DNA of 64,000 nt from a bacterium (GTDB lineage Bacteria; Patescibacteriota; Minisyncoccia; Moranbacterales; UBA1568), in assembly GCA_021821305.1 (NCBI GenBank), contig JAKACP010000001.1, positions 468,349 to 532,348 of the forward strand, read 5' to 3'. Below are positions 125-63,441 of this stretch, one piece after another; position 1 is the first letter of the stretch; every line of letters begins with the position of its first letter. The notes under the pieces were generated by a model. That model was not told where the DNA came from. It saw only the letters and a list, made by a program, of their open reading frames with translations, and made no database searches. Position numbers and translations under genes: made by a program.

Positions 125-162
125 GGACGGAAGGATTCCGTGGCGGCGAAGCGGAAGCGGTA

Positions 163-284
163 TGCTTCCGTTTTTGCTTTTTTCGGGCTACAATAAAGAA
201 AAGCACAACTCTCAAAACACAAAGACCAAACAAAACACAAAACACAGAAACCAAGCTAGTGCCTCTGTTCGTGTTTTTATACAT
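163..284. repeat. AC-rich/GT-rich imperfect inverted-repeat element, copy C (shorter), immediately upstream of trmD
   Basis: gtttttgcttttttcg … ctcaaaacacaaagaccaaacaaaacacaaaacacagaaacc … ctctgttcgtgttttt. Same caaaacaca/tgtgttttg building blocks as copies at 918-1062 and 50690-50820. AT-richer than the 65 percent GC background. Confidence 0.45.
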
Positions 285-986
285 ATGCGTTTCGACATCC
301 TCTCCCTGTTTCCCGAAAGTTTCGAATCCTACTTCGGTGCCTCCATGCTGAAGCGCGCGAGGGAGGACGGAAAAATCGATATCAGGCTCTGGAATCCGCG
401 CGACTTCACCCGCGACAAGCACCGCTCCGCTGACGACACGCCCTATGGCGGCGGGGCCGGGATGGTCATGAAGCCGGAGCCGATTTTCGAATGCGCGGAA
501 AGGGCGCTCTCGGAGGGTCCCTCCCGCGAGAAGACGCGGATCATCCTCTTTTCCGCGAAGGGGAAACCCTTCGTCCAGGAAGACGCGAGGCGGCTTTCGC
601 GGTATGAACGTCTCATCCTTATCTGCGGCCGATACGAGGGCGTGGACGAACGCGTGGCGGAGCACCTCGCCGACGAGGAGGTCTCGATCGGGGAGTACGT
701 GCTCACGGGAGGGGAATTGCCCGCGATGGTCGTGACCGACGCGGTGGCGCGGCTCGTGCCCGGTGTCCTCGGCAACGTCGAGAGCGCGGAGACGGAATCG
801 CACAGCGAGGAAGGCGTGCTCGAATATCCCCAGTACACGAAGCCCGAGGAATATCGGGGATGGCGCGTGCCGGACGTACTCCTCTCCGGGCATCACGCGG
901 AGATCGCCAAGTGGAGAAAAAGCAAATCACAAACCATCCAAAACACAAAAAGCCAAACAAAACACGAAACACAGGATCCAAACTGA
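285..986 (+). CDS. trmD: tRNA (guanine37-N1)-methyltransferase TrmD
   Basis: MRFDILSLFPESF…GYNKEK…DDTPYGGGAGMVMKPEPI…ICGRYEGVDERV…GEYVLTGGELPAMVV: SPOUT/TrmD signature. ATG at 285 after the repeat. Last ~20 aa (KSKSQTIQNTKSQTKHETQDPN) are encoded by repeat copy A. Confidence 0.9.
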   Translation: MRFDILSLFPESFESYFGASMLKRAREDGKIDIRLWNPRDFTRDKHRSADDTPYGGGAGMVMKPEPIFECAERALSEGPSREKTRIILFSAKGKPFVQEDARRLSRYERLILICGRYEGVDERVAEHLADEEVSIGEYVLTGGELPAMVVTDAVARLVPGVLGNVESAETESHSEEGVLEYPQYTKPEEYRGWRVPDVLLSGHHAEIAKWRKSKSQTIQNTKSQTKHETQDPN

Positions 987-1062
987 CGCGCTTATTTTGT
1001 GTTTTGAAATTTTTGGAGTTTGTTTGGTCTTTTGTGCTCTGGGCTTTGTGTTTTTGAAAAAA
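918..1062. repeat. AC-rich/GT-rich imperfect inverted-repeat element, copy A (trmD-ftsW intergenic, overlapping trmD 3-prime end)
   Basis: caaaacacaaaaagccaaacaaaacac is 27/27 identical to 50696-50722. It is followed by a GT-rich arm (ttttgtgttttg…gtttggtcttttgtgctctgggctttgtgtttttg) that can fold back on the AC arm, then a T/A run before the ftsW ATG. Confidence 0.55.
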
Positions 1063-6404: not shown

Positions 6405-6524
6405 GAAACGGCTTTATCAAGGGGAAAAGCAACAAGCAACTCACAGTCAACAAAAAGAGGGAACTGATTTTTCTGTCCCTTGTTCTCTGTTAATTGTTCT
6501 CTGTTTTTCTGTTAACTGACCTTT

Positions 6525-9167
<2,643 letters not shown>

Positions 9168-9766: not shown

Positions 9767-10035
9767 AAAAGAAAAGCCCCCGGACTCGTCAACTCTGCCG
9801 GGACGTTGCCGCGGCGAGATGGGCGCATGAGTTCGGGGGGCGCGAGGAAGGGGATCGGGGAGTGGGGGAAATGATGTCATGGGTTCGTCGTGAACCCTGC
9901 TGCCCCGAATGCCCTATCCTCGCACGATCAGTATACAAGGGGATGTCCCATGACACAACCGCACGGTTGACGGATGTTCCTTCCGGATGTATTTTCGAGA
10001 TAAGTTCCAGTTTTTTTACAGGAAGGAGAAGGAAA

Positions 10036-10509
10036 ATGGCAAAGTTTCTGGATGGATGGAGGGTTCAGCCATGGGTGCCGCGGAGTGTCGCCTTCGTTCT
10101 CGGTACGCAGGGATATCATTACGCTATCCGCCAGGGGAGCATCGAGGATCTGGCGGCCGCGATCTTCTTCATACGCGAGGCCGAAAAACGCGGAGTGCGT
10201 ATCCGGAAAGATTTTCCCGGAGAGGCGCTCATCGTCCGCGAGATGATGGAGAGCGGGTACTACGGTCTCAAGCGGAGCGACTATACGGATCAGATCACGC
10301 TCTGGATGTCGCTTGCGGACGGGAAACGCCTGGTCGTGGAAGACCTGAGGCAGGCGATCGTGTTCGGTGCGGATCCCGATCTGACATTTTGGCCACAACT
10401 CGAGGAATCGATGACGGGAACGGCTTGCGAGATATTCGTCGGCGGGAAATCCTATCCCTTTTCGATAGCCAACCTCTGCTTTTTCCTGGAGCAGGCCAAA
10501 GCCGCATGA
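10036..10509 (+). CDS. hypothetical protein (about 157 aa)
   Basis: Start chosen at MAKFLDGWRVQPW behind SD aggaaggagaagg. TTGACG-17-TATTTT promoter-like element at about 9976-10004. No family recognised. Confidence 0.5.
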   Translation: MAKFLDGWRVQPWVPRSVAFVLGTQGYHYAIRQGSIEDLAAAIFFIREAEKRGVRIRKDFPGEALIVREMMESGYYGLKRSDYTDQITLWMSLADGKRLVVEDLRQAIVFGADPDLTFWPQLEESMTGTACEIFVGGKSYPFSIANLCFFLEQAKAA

Positions 10510-17126: not shown

Positions 17127-19874
17127 ATGTCGTCCGAACGGATGCGATATGTCTACGCGGCAAGCAGAGGGCAGAGGATATATTTCTCGCCCCGTTGGTC
17201 GCGCCCCGTTTCTCCGAGGAGGGTCTCTTGGATCCTCCCCGCGTACGCGCGGGCAGTTTTTCTGAAAAAATCCTTCATCATAAGCCTTTCTTTGGCTGTC
17301 GCGTTTTATCCCATGGCGCCGATGGCCGCGGTCGCGGACGATACCGCTCCGGAAAGCGAGCCCGTCCTTGAGTCCGAGTCACCGGAAGCGGATCCGGAAG
17401 AAGCGCCTGCGGAGGAGACTGCGGAGAAAGAACCTACTGAAGAGACTCCGGAAGAAGCACCGGCGGAAGAAGAAGCGGCACCCGAGAAGGTCGTCGAACC
17501 CGATGCCGAACCTGATATGGCTGTAACCGCGTCGTCGGAACCGGAAGTCGCGCCGGACCCGGAGGCGGAGCCGGAAACATCGGAAGCGTCTCCCTGTGAC
17601 GAGGGAGCGCCAGCGGATGAACATGAAGTGCCAGTGGATGGACATGAGGACGGCACGGTCATCGAGAGCTGTAACGAAGCCGAAACGGAGAGTGATGTGA
17701 CAGCCTCATCCGATACCGGTGAAAATGCCATCGTCATCGAGGAGGGTGATCCCGTCGGAGAGGAGGAAGGAACTGATACCGATGAATCGACGGAAGCGGA
17801 TACCGTGAGTGCCGCCGCCGAACCCGCCGTCGCGGAAGTCGCTCCGGATGAGGGCGTCGATTCCGCTATCGACACCGGCGATGCCGGCGCGACCGCCGTG
17901 CTCGTCCAGGACGTGAATACCGATATCGTGGGGAATGATGTCGACAAGGAAGTGATCGTGGCGGACGAGGAGACGGGAGATATCGACCTGCTCGAGGCAT
18001 TCGTCGGCACGGAGGAGGAAAATGGAGAAGCGGCGGAAACGAATCAGCCCGGGGAAACGGATGGATCCGGTGGCGGGGTCGCGGTCGTGAACGGCAATGA
18101 GGCCACCGTCGAGAATACCGTCGTCGCGACAGCCGAGACCGGGGACAACTCGATCGAGGGCGGCGACGGGGCGGCCATCGATACCGGGGACGCTTCCGCG
18201 CTCGCGGTGGCGGTCAACGTCGTCAACACCACGCTCGTCGGGTCCAACGGACTCCTCGCCATCGTCAATATTGTCGGCGACTATGCCGGCGATGTCATTT
18301 TGCCCGGCGAGGGCCTGCTCTCCTTCGGCGGAGGCGACCCGAGTCTGGAGACCGTCGAGAACGGGAACGAGGCGACCATCGAGAATACGGTCACGGCATC
18401 CGCCGATACGGGCGGCAATACGATCGAGGGTTCCGGCGACGCATCCATCGAGACGGGCGATGCGGTCGCCGTGGCGGAAAGCGATACCATCGCCAATACG
18501 AATTTCGTCGGCGACAACTGGCTTGTCGTCGTGGTCAATGTGTTCGGTGAATGGCTGGGCGGCATCGTCGACGGCGAGGATGCGGATGGCGACGGAGTCA
18601 TCGGATTCCTCTTCGGCGGCGGAGGGGAGAGCGATGGTTGCGACGCGGAGTGCGGCGATATCGTGTCGGTCTCGGGCAAGAACGTCGCCTATGTGGTCAA
18701 CACCGTCTCGGCGAGCGCGGACACGGGCGGCAACACCATCACCAGCGCGGACGATGCGTCGATCGTGACCGGAAACGCCTCCGCGACCGCCGCCGCGTTC
18801 AACTTCGTGAACAACAATATCGTCGGGCATAACTGGCTCCTCGCGGTCATCAACGTCTTCGGAAGCTGGGGTGGCAACCTCGTCTTCGCCTATCCGGACC
18901 TCTCGACCTCGGTCAGCGACGGGAGAGAGACCGCACTTCCCGGCGACACCCTCGAATATGTCGTCCGGGTCGAAAACGGCGGCATGGCCGACGCGGAGGG
19001 TGTGTCGGTGGCATTCCGGATTCCGGGATCATCCGAATACCGGTCCGCTTCCGACGGGGCGGAGCGCAACGGCGACACGGTCATCTGGACGCTTTCATCT
19101 CTGAAAAAAGGCGAAAGTAAGGGATTTACCGTGACGGTGGCAGTGGACGGCGGGACACCTGACGGAGCCGAGCTCCGCGCATACGCGCAGGCGGGGACGG
19201 ATACCGCCGAGAAGCATCCGGAGAACAACGTCTCAGACGACGAGACGACCGTCGATATCCCCGATGCGGTCATCACGCAGATCGACGCGGAATACGTTGA
19301 TGGAAACTCTTATCACACTGGGCTCCGCGTGAAGCGGAGTAAACCCGATGGCGCGTTCCGAGGCGGGGACACGGTCACGCATCGGATCACCGTCGAGAAC
19401 ACCGGCAAGAATCCAGCCTACGATGTCGTGGCGGAGGACTCGTTCGAGACACCCGACGGTACGCTTATCGCCACGCTCGAATGGAACATAGGCGGAATCG
19501 ACTCGGGCAAGGGCGTGCTCATCGAATACACGATCGCCATCCCGAACCAGGTCGGAGCCGGACAGTATCGCTACACCGCCCGTGCCGAGGGCAAACAGTA
19601 CGATGACGATGATATACGGTCCAAGAAGGCCTATGCCACGCTCACCATCGTCGGGTCCGCCTTCGCCGGGGCGTTCGGTGCGGAGACGGTCGAAGCGGCA
19701 TCGCCGGAAGACGTGACGATCCCGGGCGAAGTGCAGGGCGCGCAGGCCGCGACGGTCGGGGAGGTCGTCGGGAACGGGAAGTTCCCGCTCTGGATGCTTC
19801 TTCTCTCCGGGCTCGCCTATTTCCTCATGATCAACTGGTCGTTCTTCCCGAAAACTCACCGGAGAATCATATGA
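17127..19874 (+). CDS. large cell-surface protein R3: acidic Pro/Glu-rich linker, 3 tandem TG(D/G)N repeats, DUF11-like conserved-repeat domains, C-terminal hydrophobic anchor
   Basis: Three ~95-aa repeats (ENTVVATAETGDNSIEGGDGAAIDTGDASALAVAVNVVNTTLVG / ENTVTASADTGGNTIEGSGDASIETGDAVAVAESDTIANTNFVG / VNTVSASADTGGNTITSADDASIVTGNASATAAAFNFVNNNIVG). Then TLEYVVRVENGGMADAEGVSVAFRIP and VTHRITVENTGKNPAYDVVAED (DUF11-like). C-terminal PLWMLLLSGLAYFLMINWSFFPKTHRRII. True start uncertain (no start codon directly before the hydrophobic segment). Confidence 0.75.
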   Translation: MSSERMRYVYAASRGQRIYFSPRWSRPVSPRRVSWILPAYARAVFLKKSFIISLSLAVAFYPMAPMAAVADDTAPESEPVLESESPEADPEEAPAEETAEKEPTEETPEEAPAEEEAAPEKVVEPDAEPDMAVTASSEPEVAPDPEAEPETSEASPCDEGAPADEHEVPVDGHEDGTVIESCNEAETESDVTASSDTGENAIVIEEGDPVGEEEGTDTDESTEADTVSAAAEPAVAEVAPDEGVDSAIDTGDAGATAVLVQDVNTDIVGNDVDKEVIVADEETGDIDLLEAFVGTEEENGEAAETNQPGETDGSGGGVAVVNGNEATVENTVVATAETGDNSIEGGDGAAIDTGDASALAVAVNVVNTTLVGSNGLLAIVNIVGDYAGDVILPGEGLLSFGGGDPSLETVENGNEATIENTVTASADTGGNTIEGSGDASIETGDAVAVAESDTIANTNFVGDNWLVVVVNVFGEWLGGIVDGEDADGDGVIGFLFGGGGESDGCDAECGDIVSVSGKNVAYVVNTVSASADTGGNTITSADDASIVTGNASATAAAFNFVNNNIVGHNWLLAVINVFGSWGGNLVFAYPDLSTSVSDGRETALPGDTLEYVVRVENGGMADAEGVSVAFRIPGSSEYRSASDGAERNGDTVIWTLSSLKKGESKGFTVTVAVDGGTPDGAELRAYAQAGTDTAEKHPENNVSDDETTVDIPDAVITQIDAEYVDGNSYHTGLRVKRSKPDGAFRGGDTVTHRITVENTGKNPAYDVVAEDSFETPDGTLIATLEWNIGGIDSGKGVLIEYTIAIPNQVGAGQYRYTARAEGKQYDDDDIRSKKAYATLTIVGSAFAGAFGAETVEAASPEDVTIPGEVQGAQAATVGEVVGNGKFPLWMLLLSGLAYFLMINWSFFPKTHRRII
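18080..18880 (+). repeat. three tandem protein-level repeats (~280-300 nt period) inside R3
   Basis: Repeat cores at about 18109, 18380 and 18695 (gagaataccgtc…accggggacaac / gagaatacggtc…acgggcggcaat / aacaccgtctcg…acgggcggcaac). Confidence 0.6.
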
Positions 19875-47368: not shown

Positions 47369-47854
47369 TCAGCTGTCCCTTCGGAGAAGTTTCGGGGAAA
47401 CGGAATAGATGTTCCCGTTTACCGTATCCAGAACCAGGACGCGTTTCGCGGGAATGGTAGTTCCGCCTCCTCGCCGGAACGCTACGATTGTTTTTGTATA
47501 CGACTCCGCTCGTGCGGCGAAGTCGGTGAACTCACAGGGATACATGCGGAGGGATGGTCTTCCTTCCTCGACCGCAAGGACCGAAAGAAGGTGGTCGTTC
47601 AAGGATGTCTCACTGAGGACGGAATGCGTAAATCGCATCCGATCGCCCGGATACAGACAATCCTCTTCCGCCTCCTCCGGAAGATCCGATTCAAGTACGA
47701 AGGTCTTGACCAGCGCTCCCGCGTTCGGTTTCTGCGGTATCACTTTGTTGAATGATTCGCACCAGGGAACATCCCCGAAAATCGATTCATCCCATTCCCT
47801 TGGTTCCTTGCTGTGAGGAAAAGGTTCATAGTACATCATCAGTGCGTGGCCCAT
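47369..47854 (-). CDS. hypothetical protein X1 (161 aa), expressed from duplicated promoter/leader cassette
   Basis: MGHALMMYYEPFPHSKEPREWDESIFGDVPWCESFNKVIPQKP… GC about 54 percent. Strong SD (aaggag) inside the conserved leader. Confidence 0.6.
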   Translation of the reverse strand: MGHALMMYYEPFPHSKEPREWDESIFGDVPWCESFNKVIPQKPNAGALVKTFVLESDLPEEAEEDCLYPGDRMRFTHSVLSETSLNDHLLSVLAVEEGRPSLRMYPCEFTDFAARAESYTKTIVAFRRGGGTTIPAKRVLVLDTVNGNIYSVSPKLLRRDS

Positions 47855-48011
47855 CTCGGTCTCCTTCTTTCAGATTGAAAGGTTCGCGCGTCTGCGCAAG
47901 GAGATACCCCGGAAATCCGGGGAACAGGCAGACACACGACAGAGACCCTCGCGGGCGCTTTTGTGAATGTACTCAGCTGACCATCGTACTCCAAAAAGGC
48001 TTTTTTGTCAA
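47855..48011 (-). promoter_or_regulatory. consensus promoter (TTGACA-17-TACGAT) plus about 120-nt structured 5-prime leader, copy A of a duplicated cassette
   Basis: Minus strand: TTGACA (48006-48011), 17-nt spacer, TACGAT (47983-47988). Leader has CCC-GCGA-GGG (GNRA) hairpin, CCCCGG-AUUU-CCGGGG hairpin, and CUCCUU…AAGGAG pairing that can sequester the SD. About 97 percent identical to 48609-48765. Confidence 0.55.
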
Positions 48012-48089
48012 GAGATTCGGATGTCTGTTCCCGGAATCCGAGTGAAAAAACAACCCCTGAGAGAATTTTCTCTTCAGGGGCTTCGTGTG

Positions 48090-48608
48090 TCAGACATGGA
48101 CCGATTGTTCCGGTTTCATGTTGTCGCTTCGTCTGCGGGCGAAGAACTTGGAAATGGCCGCGTTGTATGCGGCGAGCGTTGTTTCGTTGCTTTCCATTTC
48201 CTGCATCAAACGGTTGAACCGGACATCGAAATCGCACATGAGCACCGCTTTCGTCTGCAAGTCGAGAGACCGGCTCTGGGTGGAGCGGGATATCTCGCAT
48301 ATTATTTCCGCGAGGTCGATCTGGTTCCGTTGAAGCGCGAAAAGGACTTCCTTTCTGGCCACGCTCAGCTCCTCCGCTGATTTTCCCGCGGTCAGTTCCG
48401 ATATTTCGAGCTCGGATGCTTCCGATTCGAATTCTTGGAGCCAGTCCGAATCCGGATTCTCCTTCAGGGCGATCGTCTCGTCCGTCGGAGCTTTCTTGCC
48501 GAATAAGGAAATGGTGTGGACCACTTCCTGCAGGGATGTCGCGAGGAATCCGGCGAACCTGGGAAAAGAAAGGTGCTGATAGCGACCTGCTAGCTGGTGA
48601 AAGTTCAT
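48090..48608 (-). CDS. hypothetical protein X2 (172 aa), expressed from the second copy of the promoter/leader cassette
   Basis: MNFHQLAGRYQHLSFPRFAGFLATSLQEVVHTISLF… Not similar to X1. Confidence 0.55.
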   Translation of the reverse strand: MNFHQLAGRYQHLSFPRFAGFLATSLQEVVHTISLFGKKAPTDETIALKENPDSDWLQEFESEASELEISELTAGKSAEELSVARKEVLFALQRNQIDLAEIICEISRSTQSRSLDLQTKAVLMCDFDVRFNRLMQEMESNETTLAAYNAAISKFFARRRSDNMKPEQSVHV

Positions 48609-48765
48609 GGTTATCTCCTTCTTTCAGATTGAAAGGTTCGCGCGTCTGCGCAAGGAGATACCCCGGAAATCCGGGGAACAGGCAGACACACGACAGAGAC
48701 CCTCGCGGGCGCTTTTGTGAACGTACTCAACTTGCCATTATACTCCGAAATGGCTTTTTTGTCAA
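48609..48765 (-). promoter_or_regulatory. consensus promoter (TTGACA-17-TATAAT) plus structured 5-prime leader, copy B
   Basis: Minus strand: TTGACA (48760-48765), 17-nt spacer, TATAAT (48737-48742). Leader 48611-48712 is identical to copy A. Confidence 0.55.
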
Positions 48766-48916
48766 GATACCGGGGTAATCCGGATATCGTTGTCGAAAAT
48801 CCAAAAAAACGTTTCATTTTTGCCCCTCCTTCTGAAAAAAGGCTTTTCAGAGATTTCGATGCCTTCAGTATAGCATGAAAATGGCTTGTAAAAAACCCTG
48901 TCCGGACACCGAAACA

Positions 48917-50083: not shown

Positions 50084-50111
50084 ATTATACCAGTTTCTCA
50101 CGATTTGTCAA
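50084..50111 (-). promoter_or_regulatory. consensus sigma-70 promoter (TTGACA-16-TATAAT) on minus strand, embedded in the last codons of recR, driving Y2-Y1
   Basis: Minus strand: TTGACA (50106-50111), 16-nt spacer, TATAAT (50084-50089). Confidence 0.5.
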
Positions 50112-50678
50112 TGCTGACTTGAGCGTCATCTCGTCGGCGTATTCGATATCGCCGCCGGTCGCGAGTCCGCGTGCGAGCCGGGAAACGCGTACGCCGAGCG
50201 GTTCGAGCTTCTTTTTCAGGTAAAGGGCGGTCAGATCTCCTTCGGTGGTCGGGTTGAGCGCGAGAATCACCTCCTCGACATGCTCCTCGCCGATGCGGTT
50301 CTGGAGCTCGGGGATGCGCAAGGCGGTACCGCCGTCGCCTCCTGCCTGCATGACTCCGCCCAGGCAGTGATAGCGCCCGTGGAAACTCGCCGACCGCTCG
50401 AGGGCGATCACGTCCATGGGTTCCTCGACGACGCAGAGGATCGACGTATCGCGCTTGGGATCCTCGCAGATGTCGCAGTATTCTCCCTCGGATATGTGGA
50501 AACAGCGGGAGCAGAACGAGAGGTTCTTCAGCTCCTCGAGGCTTTCGGCGAAAGCGAGCAGTTTCGCGTCTTCCTGTTTGAAGAGGTAGAGCACGATGCG
50601 CTCGGCCATCTTCGGTCCGACGGACGGAAGGGCCGCGAAATGCGATATCAGGTTCTGGAACGATTTTGGATACCTCAT
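50085..50678 (-). CDS. recR: recombination protein RecR
   Basis: C4 zinc finger (CSRCFHISEGEYCDIC), Toprim domain, Walker-B-like region. ATG at 50678; the listed ORF extends into the repeat. Confidence 0.9.
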   Translation of the reverse strand: MRYPKSFQNLISHFAALPSVGPKMAERIVLYLFKQEDAKLLAFAESLEELKNLSFCSRCFHISEGEYCDICEDPKRDTSILCVVEEPMDVIALERSASFHGRYHCLGGVMQAGGDGGTALRIPELQNRIGEEHVEEVILALNPTTEGDLTALYLKKKLEPLGVRVSRLARGLATGGDIEYADEMTLKSALTNREKLV

Positions 50679-50689
50679 ACTGAAAACAC

Positions 50690-50820
50690 GATATTCAAAA
50701 CACAAAAAGCCAAACAAAACACAGTCATCAAAGCACAAACGATTTCTTTTTTGTGCTTCTTAACCTTATGTTTTGTGCTTTGTTTGGTATTTTGTGCATC
50801 TGTCTTTTGTGTTTTCCGAA
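50690..50820. repeat. AC-rich/GT-rich imperfect inverted-repeat element, copy B (between dnaB and recR)
   Basis: caaaacacaaaaagccaaacaaaacac is identical to copy A. Followed by GT-rich arm (ttttttgtgctt…gttttgtgctttgtttggtattttgtgcatctgtcttttgtgtttt). Fills the whole dnaB-recR spacer. Confidence 0.55.
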
Positions 50821-50821
50821 A

Positions 50822-52186
50822 TTACATTTCGGAATGGACCCTCTCGAGATTGCGGAAGGTGGTCGAATTCTCGTCGAAGTAGAGGGAGACCTTGCCGACG
50901 GGGCCGTTGCGGTGCTTGGCGATGATGACGTCGGCGATGTTCTTGTTCGGGGTATCCGGTTTCACGCGGTCTTCGCGGTAGAGGAAGAGCACGACGTCGG
51001 CGTCCTGTTCGATGGAACCGGATTCACGGAGGTCGGAGAGCTTCGGTATCTGGTCGGGCCGCGATTCGACGGCGCGGGAGAGCTGGGAGAGCGCGATGAC
51101 CGGGACATTGAGCTCCTTGGCGAGCTGTTTGAGACCGCGGGAGATCTCGGAGATCTCCTGGACGCGGTTGTCGCCGCCGCGGGAGCGTCCTTCCATGAGC
51201 TGGAGGTAGTCGATGATGATGAGGCCGAGCTTGTGCTCCGACTGCAGACGCCGCGCCATGGTGCGCATTTCCATGATATTGGCGGACGAGGTGTCGTCGA
51301 TGAAGATCGGGGCCTCGGAAAGGACGCCGATCGCTTCGCCGATCTTCTGGAAGTCGTTGCCTTCGCCCTCGGTCTGGAGCTTGCCGGTGCGCAGGCGCCA
51401 CAGATCGACGCCGGACTGTGCGGCGATCATACGGTCGACGAGCTGATCCGAGGACATTTCGAGCGAGAAGATGCCGACCGGCACCTTGGAGTGGACACCG
51501 ACCTGCCGCGCGATGTCGAGGGCGAAGGTCGTCTTACCGACCGACGGACGGGCCGCGAGGATGATGAGGTCGGAGTTCTGGAGTCCCGAGAGGACGTTGT
51601 CGAGGTCGGTATAGGTGGTGGGGACGCCGCGGAAGGACTTGTCGCTCTTGTGGAGCTCGTCGATGCGGTTGAACGCGTCCTCGAGGATGGAACGGATCGG
51701 GATGAAGTCCTGCTTGAGGTACTTCTGGCTGACGCCGAAGAGACGCTGTTCCGCGTCGTCGAGGACCTTCTGGACGTCGTCTTCCTCGTTGAACCCCATC
51801 TCGACGATCTCCGAGGCCGCCGTGATGAGTCGGCGGAGGAGGGATTTCTTCTGGACGACCTTGGCGTAGTGCGCGACGTTGGACGCGGAGGGGACGGTAT
51901 TGACGAGCGAGGCGAGGTAGCCCGAGCCGCCGACGGAGTCGAGCTTGCCTTTTTCCTCGAGTTTGTTCGCGAGCGAGAGGACGTCGATCGGATCGCGGTC
52001 CTCGTAGAGCTCGAACATCGACTCGTAGATCAGGTTGTGGTCTCCCTTGTAGAAATCACCGGGGCGGACGAGGTCGGCGACCTTGATGATGGCGTCCTTG
52101 TCCAGCATCAAAGAGCCGAGCACCGACTGCTCGGCTTCGATATTGTGCGGCGGGACGCGGAGGTGTTCGGTGTTCTTGGTAGCCAT
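50822..52186 (-). CDS. dnaB: replicative DNA helicase DnaB
   Basis: N-terminal PPHNIEAEQSVLGSLMLD and RecA-like core (AARPSVGKTTFALDIA Walker A, LIIIDYLQLM Walker B). Confidence 0.95.
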   Translation of the reverse strand: MATKNTEHLRVPPHNIEAEQSVLGSLMLDKDAIIKVADLVRPGDFYKGDHNLIYESMFELYEDRDPIDVLSLANKLEEKGKLDSVGGSGYLASLVNTVPSASNVAHYAKVVQKKSLLRRLITAASEIVEMGFNEEDDVQKVLDDAEQRLFGVSQKYLKQDFIPIRSILEDAFNRIDELHKSDKSFRGVPTTYTDLDNVLSGLQNSDLIILAARPSVGKTTFALDIARQVGVHSKVPVGIFSLEMSSDQLVDRMIAAQSGVDLWRLRTGKLQTEGEGNDFQKIGEAIGVLSEAPIFIDDTSSANIMEMRTMARRLQSEHKLGLIIIDYLQLMEGRSRGGDNRVQEISEISRGLKQLAKELNVPVIALSQLSRAVESRPDQIPKLSDLRESGSIEQDADVVLFLYREDRVKPDTPNKNIADVIIAKHRNGPVGKVSLYFDENSTTFRNLERVHSEM

Positions 52187-58216: not shown

Positions 58217-60163
<1,947 letters not shown>

Positions 60164-60170
60164 TGATTAA

Positions 60171-60195
60171 GCGGGGCCATTTTGGCCCCGCTTTT
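60171..60195 (+). terminator. rho-independent terminator after dnaK
   Basis: gcggggcca-ttt-tggccccgc-tttt. Confidence 0.6.
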
Positions 60196-60220
60196 GTATA
60201 AAATTTAAAAGTAAACTTTT

Positions 60221-60994
60221 ATGGGCAGGTCGTACAAAGCTGATTTGGTAGAAGCGAAAAAACAGAGTAAGGAATTGGAGTCCCTAATAGCGGAACTGAC
60301 AGATAGAAATACTACGTTGGAGGAAGAACTTGCTTCTGCGAAACAGGAGTCTATTGATAATAGATTGGCGTTTGAACAAAAATATTCTACCAAAGAGAGT
60401 GAGCTTTTTTCAGAAAAACAGGCCCTGGAAGTGGAGAAAGGAGTCTTGAAGTCTGAAAATGATTCCCTCAAAAACACCATTACTGAAAAACAGGGCGAGA
60501 TAAATAAAATGCAGGTGAAAAAAATGGCATCAGAGTATGGAAATCAGGAAGATGCGTATCTTGAAGATACTATCAAGTGGAGTAAATATCTCTTGCTAAG
60601 TGCACTGGTACTTTTTTTATCTACATTTTGGTCAGTAATCTTTGCTTCTGGCAAAGCATGGTACGAGCGATTTGAATTCTACCTGATTGATTTCATACTT
60701 ATAAGTGCTGTTTGGTTTTGCGCGTGGCAATATTCTTACTATGTAAAGCTACGAAACGATTACGCGAATAGAAAAACTTTAGCACAAACTTATCACAATA
60801 TACTCCTGAGTATTGGCGAATCCGAAGACCCTAATGAAAATGTAATAAATATTGAAACTAAAAAAGAATTCATGAAGAAAGCAACGGATGTATTGTGCGC
60901 ACCAAGTATTATTGAAGCGAAAGAGCCGCTTCTCTCAAAAGAGCTGTTAAAGAATGCTGGAAAGACTGCGGAGGTTATTATTAAAATGAAATAA
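60221..60994 (+). CDS. AT-rich hypothetical protein: N-terminal coiled coil, two TM helices, C-terminal domain (island gene 1)
   Basis: GC about 35-40 percent versus 65 percent background. Coiled coil residues about 1-100; TMs YLLLSALVLFLSTFWSVIFASG and FYLIDFILISAVWFCAWQYSYYV. Confidence 0.6.
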   Translation: MGRSYKADLVEAKKQSKELESLIAELTDRNTTLEEELASAKQESIDNRLAFEQKYSTKESELFSEKQALEVEKGVLKSENDSLKNTITEKQGEINKMQVKKMASEYGNQEDAYLEDTIKWSKYLLLSALVLFLSTFWSVIFASGKAWYERFEFYLIDFILISAVWFCAWQYSYYVKLRNDYANRKTLAQTYHNILLSIGESEDPNENVINIETKKEFMKKATDVLCAPSIIEAKEPLLSKELLKNAGKTAEVIIKMK

Positions 60995-61024
60995 GCACCA
61001 CAGAAAAATCCGGTGCTTTTTGAG
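60994..61024 (+). terminator. terminator-like hairpin after island gene 1
   Basis: agcacc-acagaaaaatcc-ggtgct-ttttg. Confidence 0.45.
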
Positions 61025-61054
61025 AAGAAGCAATTCCTCTTATTTAGTAATTCT

Positions 61055-61642
61055 ATGGGTATCAGTAAAGCTCATGAAGATTTGTTGGATAGTGCTGAAA
61101 ATCTTTCTCAAAATATCAATCTATTTAGAAATGGTAAAGCCTCTGCCTATAGAATTATTGCGACAATATTATGCTCGTTACTTATTAATGACAAAAAGAA
61201 CGGAGCCTTTCTGAAAAGACTGTTTCCGAAAATAAAACTCCATCCGGTACAGGAAAATAATATGTTAAACATATTAAAATCTATAGGAGTAGATGAAAAG
61301 CATATAAAATTTCTTCAAGACGGGACCCTGTCAGTTAGAGGCAATGGAGATTCTGAACTAATACTTTTCGATTTTTTTGCCAAGCCAATAGAGCTGGATT
61401 CATGGTTAAAGCAAAGAGTTGTATACATCGAAAGCCCCATATCAATAGAAGAACTTTTAAGATCAGTTCGAGATAAAGAGTCATCTCATTTGGATCCAGA
61501 CTACAATGATACGCTTGCAAATACTCGCTCAGTTTCATATGGGGAAAATGGCTGTCACAAGGAAATTATTATTTCGATTGGAGAATATATATTACAAATA
61601 CTAAATGGTATAATTAATTTCAAAAATCTTCCGGATAAATAA
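61055..61642 (+). CDS. AT-rich hypothetical soluble protein (island gene 2)
   Basis: MGISKAHEDLLDSAENLSQNINLFRNGKASAYRIIATILCSLLINDKKNGAF… The ORF opens at 61013; ATG 61055 chosen. Confidence 0.5.
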   Translation: MGISKAHEDLLDSAENLSQNINLFRNGKASAYRIIATILCSLLINDKKNGAFLKRLFPKIKLHPVQENNMLNILKSIGVDEKHIKFLQDGTLSVRGNGDSELILFDFFAKPIELDSWLKQRVVYIESPISIEELLRSVRDKESSHLDPDYNDTLANTRSVSYGENGCHKEIIISIGEYILQILNGIINFKNLPDK

Positions 61643-61680
61643 ATTTTTGAGAAGAAAAGGAATCAAGTACCTTTTTCAAT

Positions 61681-61708
61681 AAAAACTGATATACTCGGAG
61701 CATAAAAG
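61681..61708 (+). promoter_or_regulatory. repeated cassette-leading motif AAAAACTGATATACTCGGAGCATAAAAG (extended -10 TGaTATACT), copy 1
   Basis: 28/28 identical to 63476-63503. Preceded in both copies by GAG(A/C)AGAAAAGGA… 25 nt upstream of island gene 3. Confidence 0.4.
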
Positions 61709-61732
61709 TTCATTGGTTAAAGTATCAAAAAT

Positions 61733-62242
61733 ATGGATAAAATGCTGAGAAATTCAATTATATTAGGAATTGTGGTCGTATCTTTTTCTGTTGGATACTA
61801 TCTTGTTGTATTTTTGCCAGAGAAAGAGGCGACTAGAATAGCTCAACAACAGCAAGAAAAATTATTGGATGAGCAGAAGGAGAGCGAGCGAAAAAGCAAA
61901 GAAGTGGCAAAGGAGCTGGAAATAAAAACAGCAAAGTGCTTTGAGGACGCAAAGAAATTTCATGAAAATTATATTAAATCCATAGCAGGCTATTATCAAG
62001 AACCAAAATATAACTATAATCAGAAGCTAGGAAAGTGTTTATATAGTGGGGGGTATAATAAAAAAACAGTACTTTTATCTGATGTAAATTCGGACAAGCT
62101 AGTAAAAACTCCCGAATATTATTGGGAGCGAATGGTAAAAGATGTTTATACAAACGAAACCTTAATATCAGTCTATAACTTCCAAGATACGGAAAGTATC
62201 AAGGCTTATTGGGATGAGCATAGTAAGCTCATGGGTAACTAG
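61733..62242 (+). CDS. AT-rich hypothetical protein with N-terminal TM anchor and extracytoplasmic domain (island gene 3)
   Basis: MDKMLRNSIILGIVVVSFSVGYYLVVFL…, then charged coiled segment and a Cys-containing Tyr-rich domain. Confidence 0.55.
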   Translation: MDKMLRNSIILGIVVVSFSVGYYLVVFLPEKEATRIAQQQQEKLLDEQKESERKSKEVAKELEIKTAKCFEDAKKFHENYIKSIAGYYQEPKYNYNQKLGKCLYSGGYNKKTVLLSDVNSDKLVKTPEYYWERMVKDVYTNETLISVYNFQDTESIKAYWDEHSKLMGN

Positions 62243-62286
62243 AGCAGAAAAGGAGCCCCTCCAAAGGCGGGATCGACGGGACTGTC

Positions 62287-62305
62287 GACTTTCCGACAGA
62301 AGGGC
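62287..62305 (+). promoter_or_regulatory. partial copy of the GACTTTCCGACAG… motif (copy 4), within hairpin ctgtcg-actttc-cgacag
   Basis: GACTTTCCGACAGAAGGGC matches the first 13 nt of the 22-nt family and sits about 55 nt upstream of island gene 4. Confidence 0.3.
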
Positions 62306-62355
62306 ATATTTTCAAGTTACAAGCTATTTAAATTCTTAGATTGAGGTGTGAGATT

Positions 62356-62682
62356 ATGAAAAAATTTGAAGAAATGCATTTATTGGTTCGGTACCTTGGA
62401 TATCTTTTCGTTGCCAGCATATTTTCGGCTGTTATCTTTGTGCGACCGAGCGACTCTTTTGATGAGTTAAAAAATAGTTGGGGATTTTTCCATATGGTAT
62501 CCACGCTTACGATGGGCATGAGCCTGATCGATATGGTGAAAAGTAGATTTACAGAGAATAGCAAAGCGGATTCTGGCGACGACCGCTCATTTGCTTCGGA
62601 TCAGTTTGTCTATCTGGTTTCCGGAGTTTTCGTCTATATGATCACCTTCGGATTGATTGTATCTGTGCTATCTTTTCTGTAA
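62356..62682 (+). CDS. AT-rich hypothetical small membrane protein (island gene 4)
   Basis: MKKFEEMHLLVRYLGYLFVASIFSAVIFV…FVYLVSGVFVYMITFGLIVSVLSFL with 2-3 TMs. The ORF opens at 62341. Confidence 0.45.
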   Translation: MKKFEEMHLLVRYLGYLFVASIFSAVIFVRPSDSFDELKNSWGFFHMVSTLTMGMSLIDMVKSRFTENSKADSGDDRSFASDQFVYLVSGVFVYMITFGLIVSVLSFL

Positions 62683-62739
62683 GGATATCGGAGAATCCTC
62701 CAATTCCAGATTGTTCTTGGAACTTATAGGTCTAAAGAG

Positions 62740-63441
62740 ATGGAAAGTGCAGGAATTGATTTTGTGAAAATCGACCTCGATGGAGCGGAGATCGACCTTC
62801 ATATACATCGCGCTGACAGTGATGCGGTATTGATTATGTATCCCGGTGCCGACGGGGACATCGATGGCTACAATGGAAAATACCGGAAAATCGCCGAACT
62901 CATCCGGTCGCGAAATATCGCGACGGTCGTCCGGATGGACAACCGATATTGTCCTGTCGCCCGTTTGCCATATCAGGAGTCGATGATCGTAAGGCTGGCG
63001 CATGTCATTGAGCACATCTATGACAATGCCGAACGGATAGCGCTGAGGAAAGAGGTCGGTCTATATCTCGCTGGCGTTTCCGCTGGGGCAAGTAGTGTAG
63101 CTGCGGTTCTGGATGATTTTCCGCTTGTGAAGAAAGTTTTGCTCGTCGCGCCTGCCGATAGCGCAGGTCGGGAAAATATGGAGCGCGGACTGCGGAATTA
63201 TAGGGGTGAGTTGTTTCTTGCAGCCGGAGAGGATGACGAAATCGGGGCACTTGACACCGCGCGGTTTTGCCATGACATATCTGGATTCGCTATGAGGAAA
63301 GAAATAGGGATCATTCCCGAGTGCGGCCACCAGTTCCGCGGTGAAAAAAATGGAAGGATTTTGGCGAACGCCTATCTATGGGCTTTTGCTGGCGAGGGAA
63401 ATTTTCCGAGTCACGAGGGTGGCATTGCTTTGTATGAGTAA
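62740..63441 (+). CDS. alpha/beta-hydrolase fold protein (esterase/dienelactone-hydrolase-like)
   Basis: Nucleophile elbow GVSAGAS (GxSxG); conserved His near the C-terminus (ECGHQF). GC about 50 percent, intermediate. Confidence 0.65.
   Translation: MESAGIDFVKIDLDGAEIDLHIHRADSDAVLIMYPGADGDIDGYNGKYRKIAELIRSRNIATVVRMDNRYCPVARLPYQESMIVRLAHVIEHIYDNAERIALRKEVGLYLAGVSAGASSVAAVLDDFPLVKKVLLVAPADSAGRENMERGLRNYRGELFLAAGEDDEIGALDTARFCHDISGFAMRKEIGIIPECGHQFRGEKNGRILANAYLWAFAGEGNFPSHEGGIALYE

Follow-up and report, generated by a model that had tools for sequence, protein, structure and literature searches.

A palindromic repeat family of about 140 bp that fills intergenic spacers in Candidatus Moranbacteria

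The AC-rich/GT-rich islands in a 64,000-nucleotide stretch of a Moranbacterales genome (hereafter the window) are, by all appearances, copies of an undescribed palindromic, non-coding repeat family of approximately 140 bp in Candidatus Moranbacteria (Patescibacteria/CPR); this repeat is a new family within a known class of bacterial intergenic repeats, not a new kind of system. It may be understood as a MITE- or ERIC-like repeat of mobile origin whose modules selection has maintained, probably because a putative factor recognizes them, an interpretation to which we give an even chance.

Distribution and anatomy of the repeat

A strict motif search of species-representative genomes returned 30 loci, nearly all from Candidatus Moranbacteria MAGs of 33–56% GC, with no more than seven strict matches per MAG and several copies per genome; in metagenomes, the motif was found on 14 contigs, several of the loci being identical. 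The family is present in at least 12 Candidatus Moranbacteria MAGs (33–59% GC), at a density of approximately one copy per 20–25 kb. An nhmmer profile recognized 50 copies, of which 36 are full length, in loci totalling 364 kb; copies are 120–190 bp long, non-coding and dispersed (three in the window), and some are truncated (copy A of the window, L003, L004, L007, L018, L019). These numbers, together with presence or absence at orthologous spacers (see below), bear out the proposal of a MITE/REP-like repeat family made in an earlier, sequence-only reading of the window. That reading had also failed to recognize a described family, which agrees, as far as testable, with our searches: the repeat had no match when the whole window was searched against Rfam at gathering thresholds, E-value mode gave only chance matches for positions 100–1100 (best E 0.98), and the literature on repeats of Moranbacteria and Patescibacteria and on the motif itself yielded nothing relevant.

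The alignment consensus resolves each arm into four successive modules, AAA(A/G)CAC - N6 - CAAAACACAAA - N2-3 - CCAAACAAAACAC - N6 - CAAA(A/G)CAC; the second arm mirrors these four AAARCAC-containing modules around a variable loop, which makes the whole element an inverted repeat. Because the arms are mirrored, either DNA strand reads the AC-rich arm first and the GT-rich arm second. Arms made of A and C only, or of G and T only, cannot pair with themselves, and the AC arm (copy B) contains no stop codon (TAA, TAG or TGA) in any of the three sense frames. The window has a GC content of 57.8%, rather than the 65% previously ascribed to the genome, and the elements stand out as three related islands of 33–36% GC close to where they had been reported. 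All eight occurrences of the octamer CAAAACAC (0.71 expected) lie inside the three elements, and the 27-mer CAAAACACAAAAAGCCAAACAAAACAC occurs exactly twice (0 expected, 100 shuffles); two copies do share it exactly, as had been noticed, but its carriers are copies B and C rather than A and B, copy A holding a 26-nt variant at 213–238. Copies B and C are the window's only long low-complexity inverted repeats.

The copies of the window and their neighbours

The features concerned are the following (a dot denotes no assigned strand):

148–183, + strand: intrinsic terminator belonging to the DUF4012-type gene that lies upstream, GAAGCGGAAGC-GGT-ATGCTTCCGTTTT followed by a T run (terminator scan); outside the repeat
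189–194, + strand: -10-like box TACAAT, conserved; outside the repeat
196–283, strand. : copy A, truncated element (nhmmer 44.8 bits, model positions 11–114 only)
285–986, + strand: trmD, tRNA m1G37 methyltransferase (Pfam PF01746, E 4.8e-62, residues 23–218 of 233)
915–986, + strand: element-encoded C-terminal tail of TrmD, RKSKSQTIQNTKSQTKHETQDPN, with its TGA in the loop (stop-free AC arm; homologue comparison)
915–1062, strand. : copy B, a complete element that occupies the trmD-ftsW junction (nhmmer 97.4 bits, fold, inverted repeats I1/I2)
939–965, + strand: exact 27-mer, modules L2+L3, common to copy C (exact match)
1063–2199, + strand: ftsW (Pfam PF01098, E 3.9e-113)
50085–50678, - strand: recR (Pfam RecR domains; ORF)
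50679–50821, strand. (genes on the minus strand): copy C, a complete element that occupies the dnaB-recR spacer (nhmmer 103.3 bits)
50696–50722, + strand: exact 27-mer, common to copy B (exact match)
50822–52186, - strand: dnaB (Pfam DnaB/DnaB_C; ORF)

Copy A retains its left (AC) arm, with four AAARCAC modules at 201–245, and then the loop; the right arm is reduced to a 12-nt remnant (GTTCGTGTTTTT, 266–277), and the element abuts the trmD ATG. A full-length orthologue exists (L032:9859-10006). The element does not begin at 163, as had been assumed, because 148–183 is an ordinary terminator and 189–194 a -10-like box, neither of which belongs to the repeat. The terminator is G+C-rich and kept in seven of seven orthologous loci; GGGCTACAAT is kept in six of seven relatives (L036 has CTACAC), and the sequence from there to the trmD ATG is swapped. 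TACAAT is probably a promoter -10 box, directly after which the variable trmD 5′ UTR would start.

Copy B comprises an AC arm (~915–972), a loop (~973–994) and a GT arm (~995–1055), copy C an AC arm (50682–50740) and a GT arm (50750–50816). The long imperfect hairpin that had been ascribed to each copy is found in these two, whose RNA folds score below shuffles (z -2.4/-3.1 for B, -6.3/-6.9 for C), but not in copy A (z -1.4/-0.9); copy B itself is a mediocre hairpin, 72% complementary and with a DNA-parameter z of 0.08. The ftsW ATG lies 7 nt 3′ of the last GTGTTTT module of copy B and has no Shine-Dalgarno sequence; the recR ATG is 3–4 nt from one end of copy C, and the dnaB stop codon is flush with the other. 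Orthologues were found for copy B (L034, L035, L036) and for copy C (L014, L028, L054-L056).

The C-terminal tail of TrmD

That trmD ends inside an element was correctly observed before, although the copy that is read through is B and not A. The tail comprises the 23 residues after ...KW (codons from ~915 to the TGA at 984–986) and is confined, among 120 TrmD homologues, to P0001-4, P0011 and P0040; it is kept in frame in four genomes. Homologues of 94–100%, 79% and 68% identity have it, with identical frame and stop, and others of 93%, 88% and 80% identity do not. A recent insertion into the 3′ end of trmD had been suggested: the tail is indeed lineage-specific, but its patchiness among homologues down to 68% identity speaks against recency, and the element looks like an old copy that some lineages have lost or replaced. 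The tail can be regarded as a passive by-product because the AC arm is stop-free, so that a gene losing its own stop reads on to the loop. As an aside, the elements mislead gene callers, which yields false N-terminal extensions (for example P0002, 246 aa versus 233) and element-encoded protein tails.

Placement in spacers and copying between loci

Gene contexts were derived from stop-to-stop frames and database gene calls; flanking genes were recognized by eye, those of the window being confirmed by Pfam. Copies make up whole spacers, in both orientations and between tandem, divergent and convergent genes, with ends within ~±5 nt of stop codons and mostly ~0–12 nt, in some cases up to a few tens of nt, from start codons. 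The neighbours are housekeeping genes (sufB/D, secY/adk, parA/B, smc, ftsW/murG, dnaB/recR and others).

Between trmD and ftsW, the window, L034, L035 and L036 carry an element, and L031, L032 and L033 have an empty spacer; the ftsW-murG spacer has the opposite pattern, and the dnaB-recR spacer is likewise filled or empty, depending on the relative. A 33-nt G+C-rich insert is nested at the identical element position in two copies, one between ftsW and murG (L033) and one between trmD and ftsW (L036), and the presence of this variant at two different loci implies that the element is copied between loci. That the family spread by copying between intergenic spacers, in a MITE/ERIC/Correia-like manner, is demonstrated in part. 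Like MITEs, the copies are short, non-coding and dispersed, with terminal inverted repeats, presence/absence differences and subfamily variants at different loci; a target-site duplication, expected of a MITE, was not seen, as the boundaries of 24 anchored copies carry no consistent direct repeat. Copy ends often read TA-AAA..TTT-TA, which is inseparable from their A/T-rich termini. No flanking spacer sequence is common to filled and empty orthologous spacers, none of which gave a clean empty/filled junction; since the element replaces the whole spacer, its boundaries cannot be defined by such comparison. The flanking ORFs of ~40 copies include only housekeeping genes and no transposase or partner gene, and the ~0.43 Mb inspected around copies yielded neither a trans factor nor a transposase nor an autonomous partner. 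In other lineages the same spacers hold unrelated palindromic families whose arms have a 7- or 9-nt periodicity.

Conservation of sequence and of pairing

Orthologous copies are 77–91% identical where fourfold-degenerate sites are saturated, which, at depth, is only modestly above family level, as low-complexity arms inflate alignment identity and any pair from the family already reaches ~75% identity in its arms. The dnaB-recR copies of the window and of L014 and L028 are identical at 111/131 and 116/142 positions, respectively, versus 24/61 and 23/58 fourfold sites of recR; for four other orthologue sets the values are 0.77–0.91 in the element and 0.38–0.49 at fourfold sites. Between the window and L034, only three differences are found in 906–1086 (element 98% identical) versus a fourfold divergence of 27%; no other part of the 3 kb is so well conserved, and an ordinary spacer is the least conserved. 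The close pair L024/L029 (SufB 99% identical) is 86% identical in the element, which carries indels, and 86% at fourfold sites. Strains identical in RecR show 3/143 differing positions in the element, versus 22/1451 in the flanking genes, which indicates that constraint is limited to the modules. Arm identity is 0.758 within and 0.753 between genomes, and nearest neighbours are orthologues; there is no concerted evolution, recent burst or within-genome homogenization of the repeat. The comparisons demonstrate a constancy, in place, of the modules, and not of the loop and the short inter-module spacers.

Compensatory covariation was not detected in a hand-drawn 31-pair structure (86.2% of cells paired versus 86.7% in shuffles, with a score below that of the shuffles), and RNAalifold kept only six invariant pairs across 32 copies. 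There is no sense-strand G·U bias (32 G·U versus 36 A·C), no difference between sense and antisense MFE (p=0.23), and complementarity near the loop is weak (mean z about -1). Sequence is kept and pairing is not specifically kept; with regard to the binding of Hfq or a nucleoid protein considered in the earlier reading, this pattern does point to some putative sequence-specific binding factor. Scans detected no sigma-70-like promoter within copies B or C and called a terminator at 148–183 but neither in B nor in C, where the stem by the U run consists of a few weak pairs and no short G+C-rich stem directly precedes the U tract, so that they do not belong to the intrinsic terminators. The idea of bidirectional terminators gains no support: the scan leaves the elements uncalled, canonical terminators adjoin them, and copies lie in 5′ UTRs and divergent spacers.

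Comparison with known repeat families

ERIC (or IRU) sequences, as reportedly described by Hulton (1991), by Wilson and Sharp (2006) and by De Gregorio (2005), are a close parallel in behaviour. ERIC is an imperfect palindrome of ~127 bp with tens of copies per genome in enterobacterial or Vibrio hosts, located in probably transcribed intergenic regions in both orientations, with truncated copies and internal insertions at fixed positions; it is present or absent at orthologous spacers, puzzlingly well conserved across species, and has no identified transposase. The Moranbacteria repeat resembles it in behaviour only (a palindrome of similar length, in tens of copies per genome, intergenic, in both orientations, with truncations, insertions and presence/absence, well conserved between species, no transposase having been found) and differs in its host, a CPR bacterium of another phylum, in its AC/GT-skewed arms of four AAARCAC modules, and in occupying the entire spacer, right up to the neighbouring stop and start codons. 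The ERIC core bears no apparent resemblance to the AC/GT arms, and the sequences are presumably unrelated. Rickettsia palindromic elements (RPE) are typically inserted inside ORFs and can join a protein-coding gene in frame, as the Moranbacteria repeat does with the TrmD tail; in the latter, however, the effect is confined to the 3′ end of a single gene and arises by read-through of a stop-free arm, and the sequence is unrelated. Uptake sequences, parS and other known protein-binding motifs presumably do not fit in motif frequency and sequence.

Correia (NEMIS) elements of Neisseria are 100–155 bp long, lie near genes whose expression they can alter, have been mobilized between strains and bind IHF; their transcript hairpin is a substrate of RNase III, and they possess 26-bp terminal inverted repeats, a TA target duplication and end-generated promoters (PMC2649163). 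Length, inverted-repeat ends and closeness to genes are shared by the Moranbacteria repeat, which has no target-site duplication, no sigma-70-like promoter in copies B or C and an unrelated sequence. REPINs are non-autonomous, palindromic intergenic repeats forming long hairpins, doublets of self-complementary REP units that persist vertically for long times, are kept in sequence by interaction with a protein and form populations clustered tightly around a within-genome master (PMC3116915). The Moranbacteria repeat is likewise non-autonomous, palindromic and intergenic, with a long hairpin and long vertical persistence, and its sequence, too, would be kept through a protein, but its arms do not self-pair, its identity is the same within and between genomes, and its copy number is lower; with neither a self-complementary 20–40-nt unit nor a within-genome master cluster, it does not belong to the REP/REPIN group, and no RAYT gene was seen in the fetched loci.

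Possible origin and function

We suggest that the family first spread from spacer to spacer in the MITE/ERIC/Correia manner and that most copies are now old residents, each forming an entire spacer (5′ UTR, intercistronic gap or 3′ end) of a housekeeping operon. Since conservation concerns the sequence and not the base pairing, the modules would most likely serve as recognition sites of a DNA- or RNA-binding factor acting in trans; this putative factor, perhaps a regulator or a transposase-like protein that has been domesticated, would enable the element to affect expression of the abutting genes. In a more far-reaching version, which we consider unlikely, each element would be a host-selected array of eight heptad recognition sites for a putative Moranbacteria-specific DNA- or RNA-binding factor, and such arrays, as complete UTRs or intercistronic spacers of ~20–50 housekeeping operons (cell division, replication, translation, Fe-S assembly), would constitute a genome-wide "operon punctuation" or growth-control regulon; the palindromic families of other lineages would represent this system too, their factor having co-evolved to a different specificity.

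It is conceivable, although somewhat unlikely, that the repeat is a purely selfish, still active MITE with fast turnover, its master kept constant by a transposase elsewhere and its copies inserted in a few tolerant spacers and then deleted; interspecies similarity would then reflect young copies, with neither selection in place nor host function. Presence/absence differences between close relatives, the nested-insert variant at two loci and the truncated copies agree with this, as does the occupation of the same spacers by unrelated palindromic families in other lineages, which fits successive selfish invasions; a shared master also predicts equal identity within and between genomes, and neither covariation nor strand bias nor, in the pair L024/L029, extra conservation of the element is seen. 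What argues against it is that copies in the same spacer share copy-specific variants and boundaries (at trmD, frame and stop) despite saturated fourfold sites, and that the elements of the window and L034 are 98% identical with fourfold sites at 73%; independent re-insertion would need specificity for site and register, and neither target-site duplications at copy boundaries nor a transposase in the flanks were found. If function instead resided in the RNA, as a bidirectional intrinsic terminator or attenuator, an mRNA-stabilizing stem-loop or an RNase III site between cistrons, the long AC/GU stem and U run would act on either strand. REP and ERIC, two known analogues, affect mRNA stability. 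The Correia transcript offers another as RNase III substrate (PMC2649163); as RNA, copies B and C form more stable folds than their shuffles, GUGUUUU(U) closes the 3′ arm on either strand, all copies lie in probably transcribed regions, and the unrelated families are long hairpins as well (trmD UTRs, z -1.5 to -5.6 in four of six resolved UTRs, window copy A -0.6, L032 -2.0; secA UTRs, z -0.75 to -3.7). We nevertheless judge it improbable, given that compensatory changes are missing and column shuffles pair just as well, that mismatches lack a sense G·U bias and sense is no more stable than antisense, that no element is called by the terminator scan in a host that relies on canonical G+C-rich terminators, one of them immediately 5′ of copy A, that copies are found just behind a -10 box and between divergent genes, positions at which a terminator would serve no purpose, and that copy A has kept its modules and lost the hairpin. 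A known structured RNA or guide-RNA array (riboswitch, sRNA, CRISPR or TIGR array) is scarcely credible: TIGR arrays do occur in CPR bacteria, without conserved sequence (PMC12045711), but nothing reaches the Rfam gathering score, the matches being weak chance ones such as CRISPR-DR63 (21 bits, E 1.6), covariation and G·U bias are absent, tandem periodic units are lacking, and variable segments measure only 2–6 nt. Copies are single and dispersed between housekeeping genes, with no adjacent cas or tas (Nop-domain) gene, and this whole reading is effectively refuted.

Significance

If the repeat were a purely selfish MITE, the finding would be an ordinary one. CPR/Patescibacteria have tiny genomes with few recognizable regulators and almost no characterized non-coding elements; here, whole UTRs and whole intercistronic spacers in core operons consist of a repeat whose conservation roughly matches that of the proteins encoded next to it. 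It represents an independent new instance of the ERIC puzzle, that is, of intergenic palindromes conserved without obvious transposase or RNA covariation; its profile could mark Moranbacteria contigs in metagenomes, and the repeat itself offers a concrete handle on the organization of gene expression in uncultivated episymbionts.

The elements of the window

Three low-GC islands (33–36% GC vs 57.8% for the window; a sequence-only reading had given 65 percent for the genome) have an AC-rich motif in common. The octamer CAAAACAC is confined to them, with 8 occurrences for 0.7 expected, and the 27-mer CAAAACACAAAAAGCCAAACAAAACAC, for which the chance expectation is none, occurs exactly twice (939–965 and 50696–50722, both on the plus strand). 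These sites fall in copies B and C, not in A and B as had been proposed; likewise, the last 23 codons of trmD, ascribed to copy A, lie within the AC arm of copy B, and the 5′ part of what had been read as copy A from 163 onwards is a normal terminator and promoter-like box.

AC/GT elements and adjoining features in the window
148–194: ordinary G+C-rich terminator, then conserved TACAAT box
196–283: copy A, before trmD; AC arm and just 12 nt of GT arm; no fold
285–986: trmD (Pfam)
915–1062: copy B, trmD-ftsW; imperfect hairpin of ~145 nt; RNA z-scores −2.4/−3.1
50679–50821: copy C, dnaB-recR; imperfect hairpin of ~145 nt; RNA z-scores −6.3/−6.9

The long hairpins postulated for all three copies are borne out for B and C, the sole long low-complexity inverted repeats within 64 kb, and not for A, which does not fold. 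Copy B ends 7 nt before the start of ftsW; on the minus strand, copy C accounts for exactly the 143 nt that separate the dnaB stop from the recR start (genes by Pfam).

A repeat family of Moranbacteria

The AC/GT element represents a hitherto undescribed family of palindromic repeats that are dispersed among intergenic regions and, as far as sampled, confined to Moranbacteria. Scanning one genome per species with a strict motif gave 30 loci, nearly all in MAGs of Candidatus Moranbacteria/Moraniibacteriota (33 to 56% GC; up to seven strict matches per MAG); for three MAGs the label “Bdellovibrionales” is probably wrong, because the RecR of at least one (CAZIBB) shares 86% identity with the RecR of a Moranbacteria MAG. 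Scanning metagenomes gave 14 more contigs, and an nhmmer profile made from full copies found 50 copies (36 full length) in 364 kb; the density, ascertainment allowed for, is about one per 20–25 kb. The strict loci across species and the profile copies agree with the earlier suggestion of a MITE/REP-like repeat family.

From the alignment, the arm reads AAA(A/G)CAC - N6 - CAAAACACAAA - N2-3 - CCAAACAAAACAC - N6 - CAAA(A/G)CAC, that is, four AAARCAC-containing modules (L1–L4 in the left arm), and is followed by a variable loop of 40–70 nt and a mirror-image GT arm ending in ...(C/T)TTTGTGTTTT. Owing to this symmetry an AC arm precedes a GT arm on either strand; both strands score with the profile, and the apparent “orientation” of an element stems largely from the search pattern, which required a perfect left arm.

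Genomic placement

Copies occupy tandem (~27), divergent (~4) and convergent (~4) spacers, about as expected from the mix of spacer types, and lie in both orientations relative to transcription. Their neighbours are core housekeeping genes (sufB/sufD/sufC/sufS, secY/adk/map, parA/parB, smc, nusA, tig, ligA, alaS, ftsW/murG, murC/murB, dnaB/recR). The ends are flush with stop codons (~±5 nt), and the outer GTGTTTT module is mostly 0–12 nt from the downstream ATG, which leaves no space for a Shine-Dalgarno sequence; starts lacking one are common across this genome anyway. In the trmD leader the element (full length in L032, one of the loci from relatives' genomes, and truncated in the window) runs from directly after the conserved TACAAT to the ATG, so that it probably makes up the whole 5′ UTR.

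Many window genes (for example, those starting at 11676, 13737, 30208, 41598, 45211 and 56242) have a TATACT/TACACT-like box and then GAAAC, 6–40 nt upstream of the start codon, without a Shine-Dalgarno sequence, and some of the box-to-start spacings suggest that the mRNAs may be leaderless; other genes have clear GGAGG sites. A perfect sigma-70 consensus (TTGACA-16-TATAAT with upstream TG; 50111–50084, minus strand) lies at the recR stop, so canonical promoters are in use by the organism; none was found inside AC/GT elements.

Two further regions of the window stand apart. A 154-nt direct repeat, 95% identical (47860–48013 and 48614–48767, 754 nt apart), with minus-strand ORFs of ~160–170 aa (47369–47854 and 48090–48608) that have the upstream sequence …ctgaaagaaggaga…ATG in common, looks like a local tandem duplication; a low-GC island at 60146–62800 (35–40% vs 58% GC), with several small plus-strand ORFs, is possibly of foreign or mobile origin.

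Copying and turnover

The trmD-ftsW spacer contains the element in the window, L034, L035 and L036, and measures 36–97 nt without it in L031, L032 and L033. Occupancy of ftsW-murG is the reverse: the element is present in L032, L033 and L006, with a remnant in L036, and the spacer is 30–49 nt in the window, L034 and L031. Filled and empty spacers have nothing in common outside the genes. An identical 33-nt G+C-rich insert, CCGCCCGCCACGCTTCGCGTAGCGATTCGGGCAGG, sits between modules L2 and L3 both in the ftsW-murG copy of L033 (11938–11975) and in the trmD-ftsW copy of L036 (1009–1046); the same internal position at two loci is hard to explain unless a variant element was copied between them.

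In a set of 120 TrmD homologues, what follows ...EIAKW is a short and variable stretch rich in lysine, glutamate and serine, and the tail derived from the element (…SQTIQNTKSQTKHETQDPN) is confined to P0001–P0004 (94–100% identical), P0011 (79%) and P0040 (68%; encoded at L036, with the nested 33-nt insert translated in frame). All tail-bearing proteins have a common frame and a common TGA in the loop, and hence appear to derive from a single old copy, with loss or degradation in the lineages between; of the recent insertion formerly proposed at the trmD 3′ end, the restriction to some lineages stands and the recency does not. As the AC arm has zero stop codons in any sense frame, loss of the native stop is by itself enough for the reading frame to continue to the loop.

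Other palindromic families

Moranbacteria spacers appear to house several families of palindromes with periodic arms, since unrelated elements occupy them in other Moranbacteria. At the position of copy A, the trmD 5′ UTRs of relatives carry palindromes of ~100–110 nt whose arms are 7- or 9-nt periodic; because of the one in L034, the gene call for TrmD P0002 is spuriously extended by 13 codons at the N-terminus.

Unrelated trmD-leader elements, TACAAT to ATG (coordinates local to each locus)
L031:1301–1396: AATAGTG/ACTACTC heptads
L033:9897–10000: GATTGAA-type heptads
L034 ~9940–10039: TCCATAAAG nonamers
L035:3659–3765: TCCATAAAG nonamers
L036:173–282: TCCATAAAG nonamers

The secA 5′ UTR (window 6405–6524; ATG at 6525) forms a ~100-nt imperfect hairpin after a conserved terminator and TACACT box, its arms A/C-rich 5′ (AACAAGCAAC...) and G/T-rich 3′ (...GTTCTCTGTT); it belongs to another sequence family and matches the nhmmer profile weakly (E 0.1–0.5). 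Of the secA leaders in relatives (L032:16171–16357, L034:16135–16328, L036:7891–8132, L033:17386–17477), those of L034 and L036 are other variants and that of L033 is short, “empty”. L051, from a Moranbacteria relative whose RecR is 80% identical, lacks AC/GT elements over 20 kb, nor was a copy found in the 62 kb of L051–L053; it has three copies of a TTTCTAA-heptad family (ATTTCTA/TAGAAAT) at 1883–2071, 19030–19136 and 9871–10000, the last being the dnaB-recR spacer, site of copy C in the window. Finally, a G+C-rich palindrome (CCGCCAGCTGGCGG; TCCGCCAGCTGGCGGA) is dispersed (L006:1696, L015:5120, L022:6102, L027:3781, L028:6931), within a longer ~50-nt repeat in L006 and L027, nested in AC/GT elements of L015 (right arm) and L022 (loop), and in L027 inside ligA with the reading frame unbroken.

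Constraint and interpretation

The dnaB-recR elements of the window and of L014/L028 are identical at 111/131 and 116/142 positions, differing mostly in the N6 spacers and loop, at a distance where RecR is 62% identical and fourfold-degenerate sites are saturated (39–40%); four more orthologue sets (sufB-sufD, smc, ftsW-murG) give 0.77–0.91 for the element vs 0.38–0.49 for fourfold sites, values to be read against an arm identity of ~75% between any two family members. Between the window and L034, 906–1086 has 3 differences (fourfold sites, 73% identical) and is the most conserved stretch of 3 kb, the least conserved being the ordinary ftsW-murG spacer (61–65%). The very close pair L024/L029 displays loop indels and no extra element conservation; strain-level comparisons are uninformative on constraint.

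The conserved property is not pairing: the 31-pair structure is 86.2% paired vs 86.7% in column shuffles, its covariation score is lower than that of the shuffles, the A/G position of the heptads varies independently between the arms, and mismatches in the sense transcript are as G·U 32 vs A·C 36. Nor does the sense RNA have a significant stability advantage over the antisense. A role through RNA structure alone (termination, stabilisation or RNase III cleavage) could draw on the folds of copies B and C, but in view of these results is improbable; terminator scans do not call the elements, and the bidirectional terminators once envisaged are not supported.

Less improbable, though still unlikely, is the main rival, a selfish MITE whose master sequence is conserved and whose copies turn over rapidly.

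The AC/GT element behaves similarly to ERIC, Correia/NEMIS and MITEs, and the shared insert and shifting occupancy speak for mobility; unlike those of MITEs, its copies have no detectable target-site duplication. Neither a transposase nor any autonomous partner was seen among the genes flanking about 40 copies (inspection; Pfam for window genes). It also departs from REPINs (PMC3116915) in structure and population behaviour. Concerted evolution is rejected, within-genome arm identity (0.758) equalling that between genomes (0.753) and nearest neighbours being the orthologous copies. Rfam searches excluded an Rfam family, and a CRISPR or TIGR array was rejected.

Given that conservation in place falls on the sequence modules and not specifically on pairing, and that an element makes up a whole UTR or intercistronic spacer, we favour recognition by a sequence-specific factor; such a factor would bind the modules and influence expression of the adjoining genes, a combined reading to which we give an even chance. 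The AC/GT family is a real feature of these genomes, and would gain in interest with proof of a cognate factor or of an effect on regulation.
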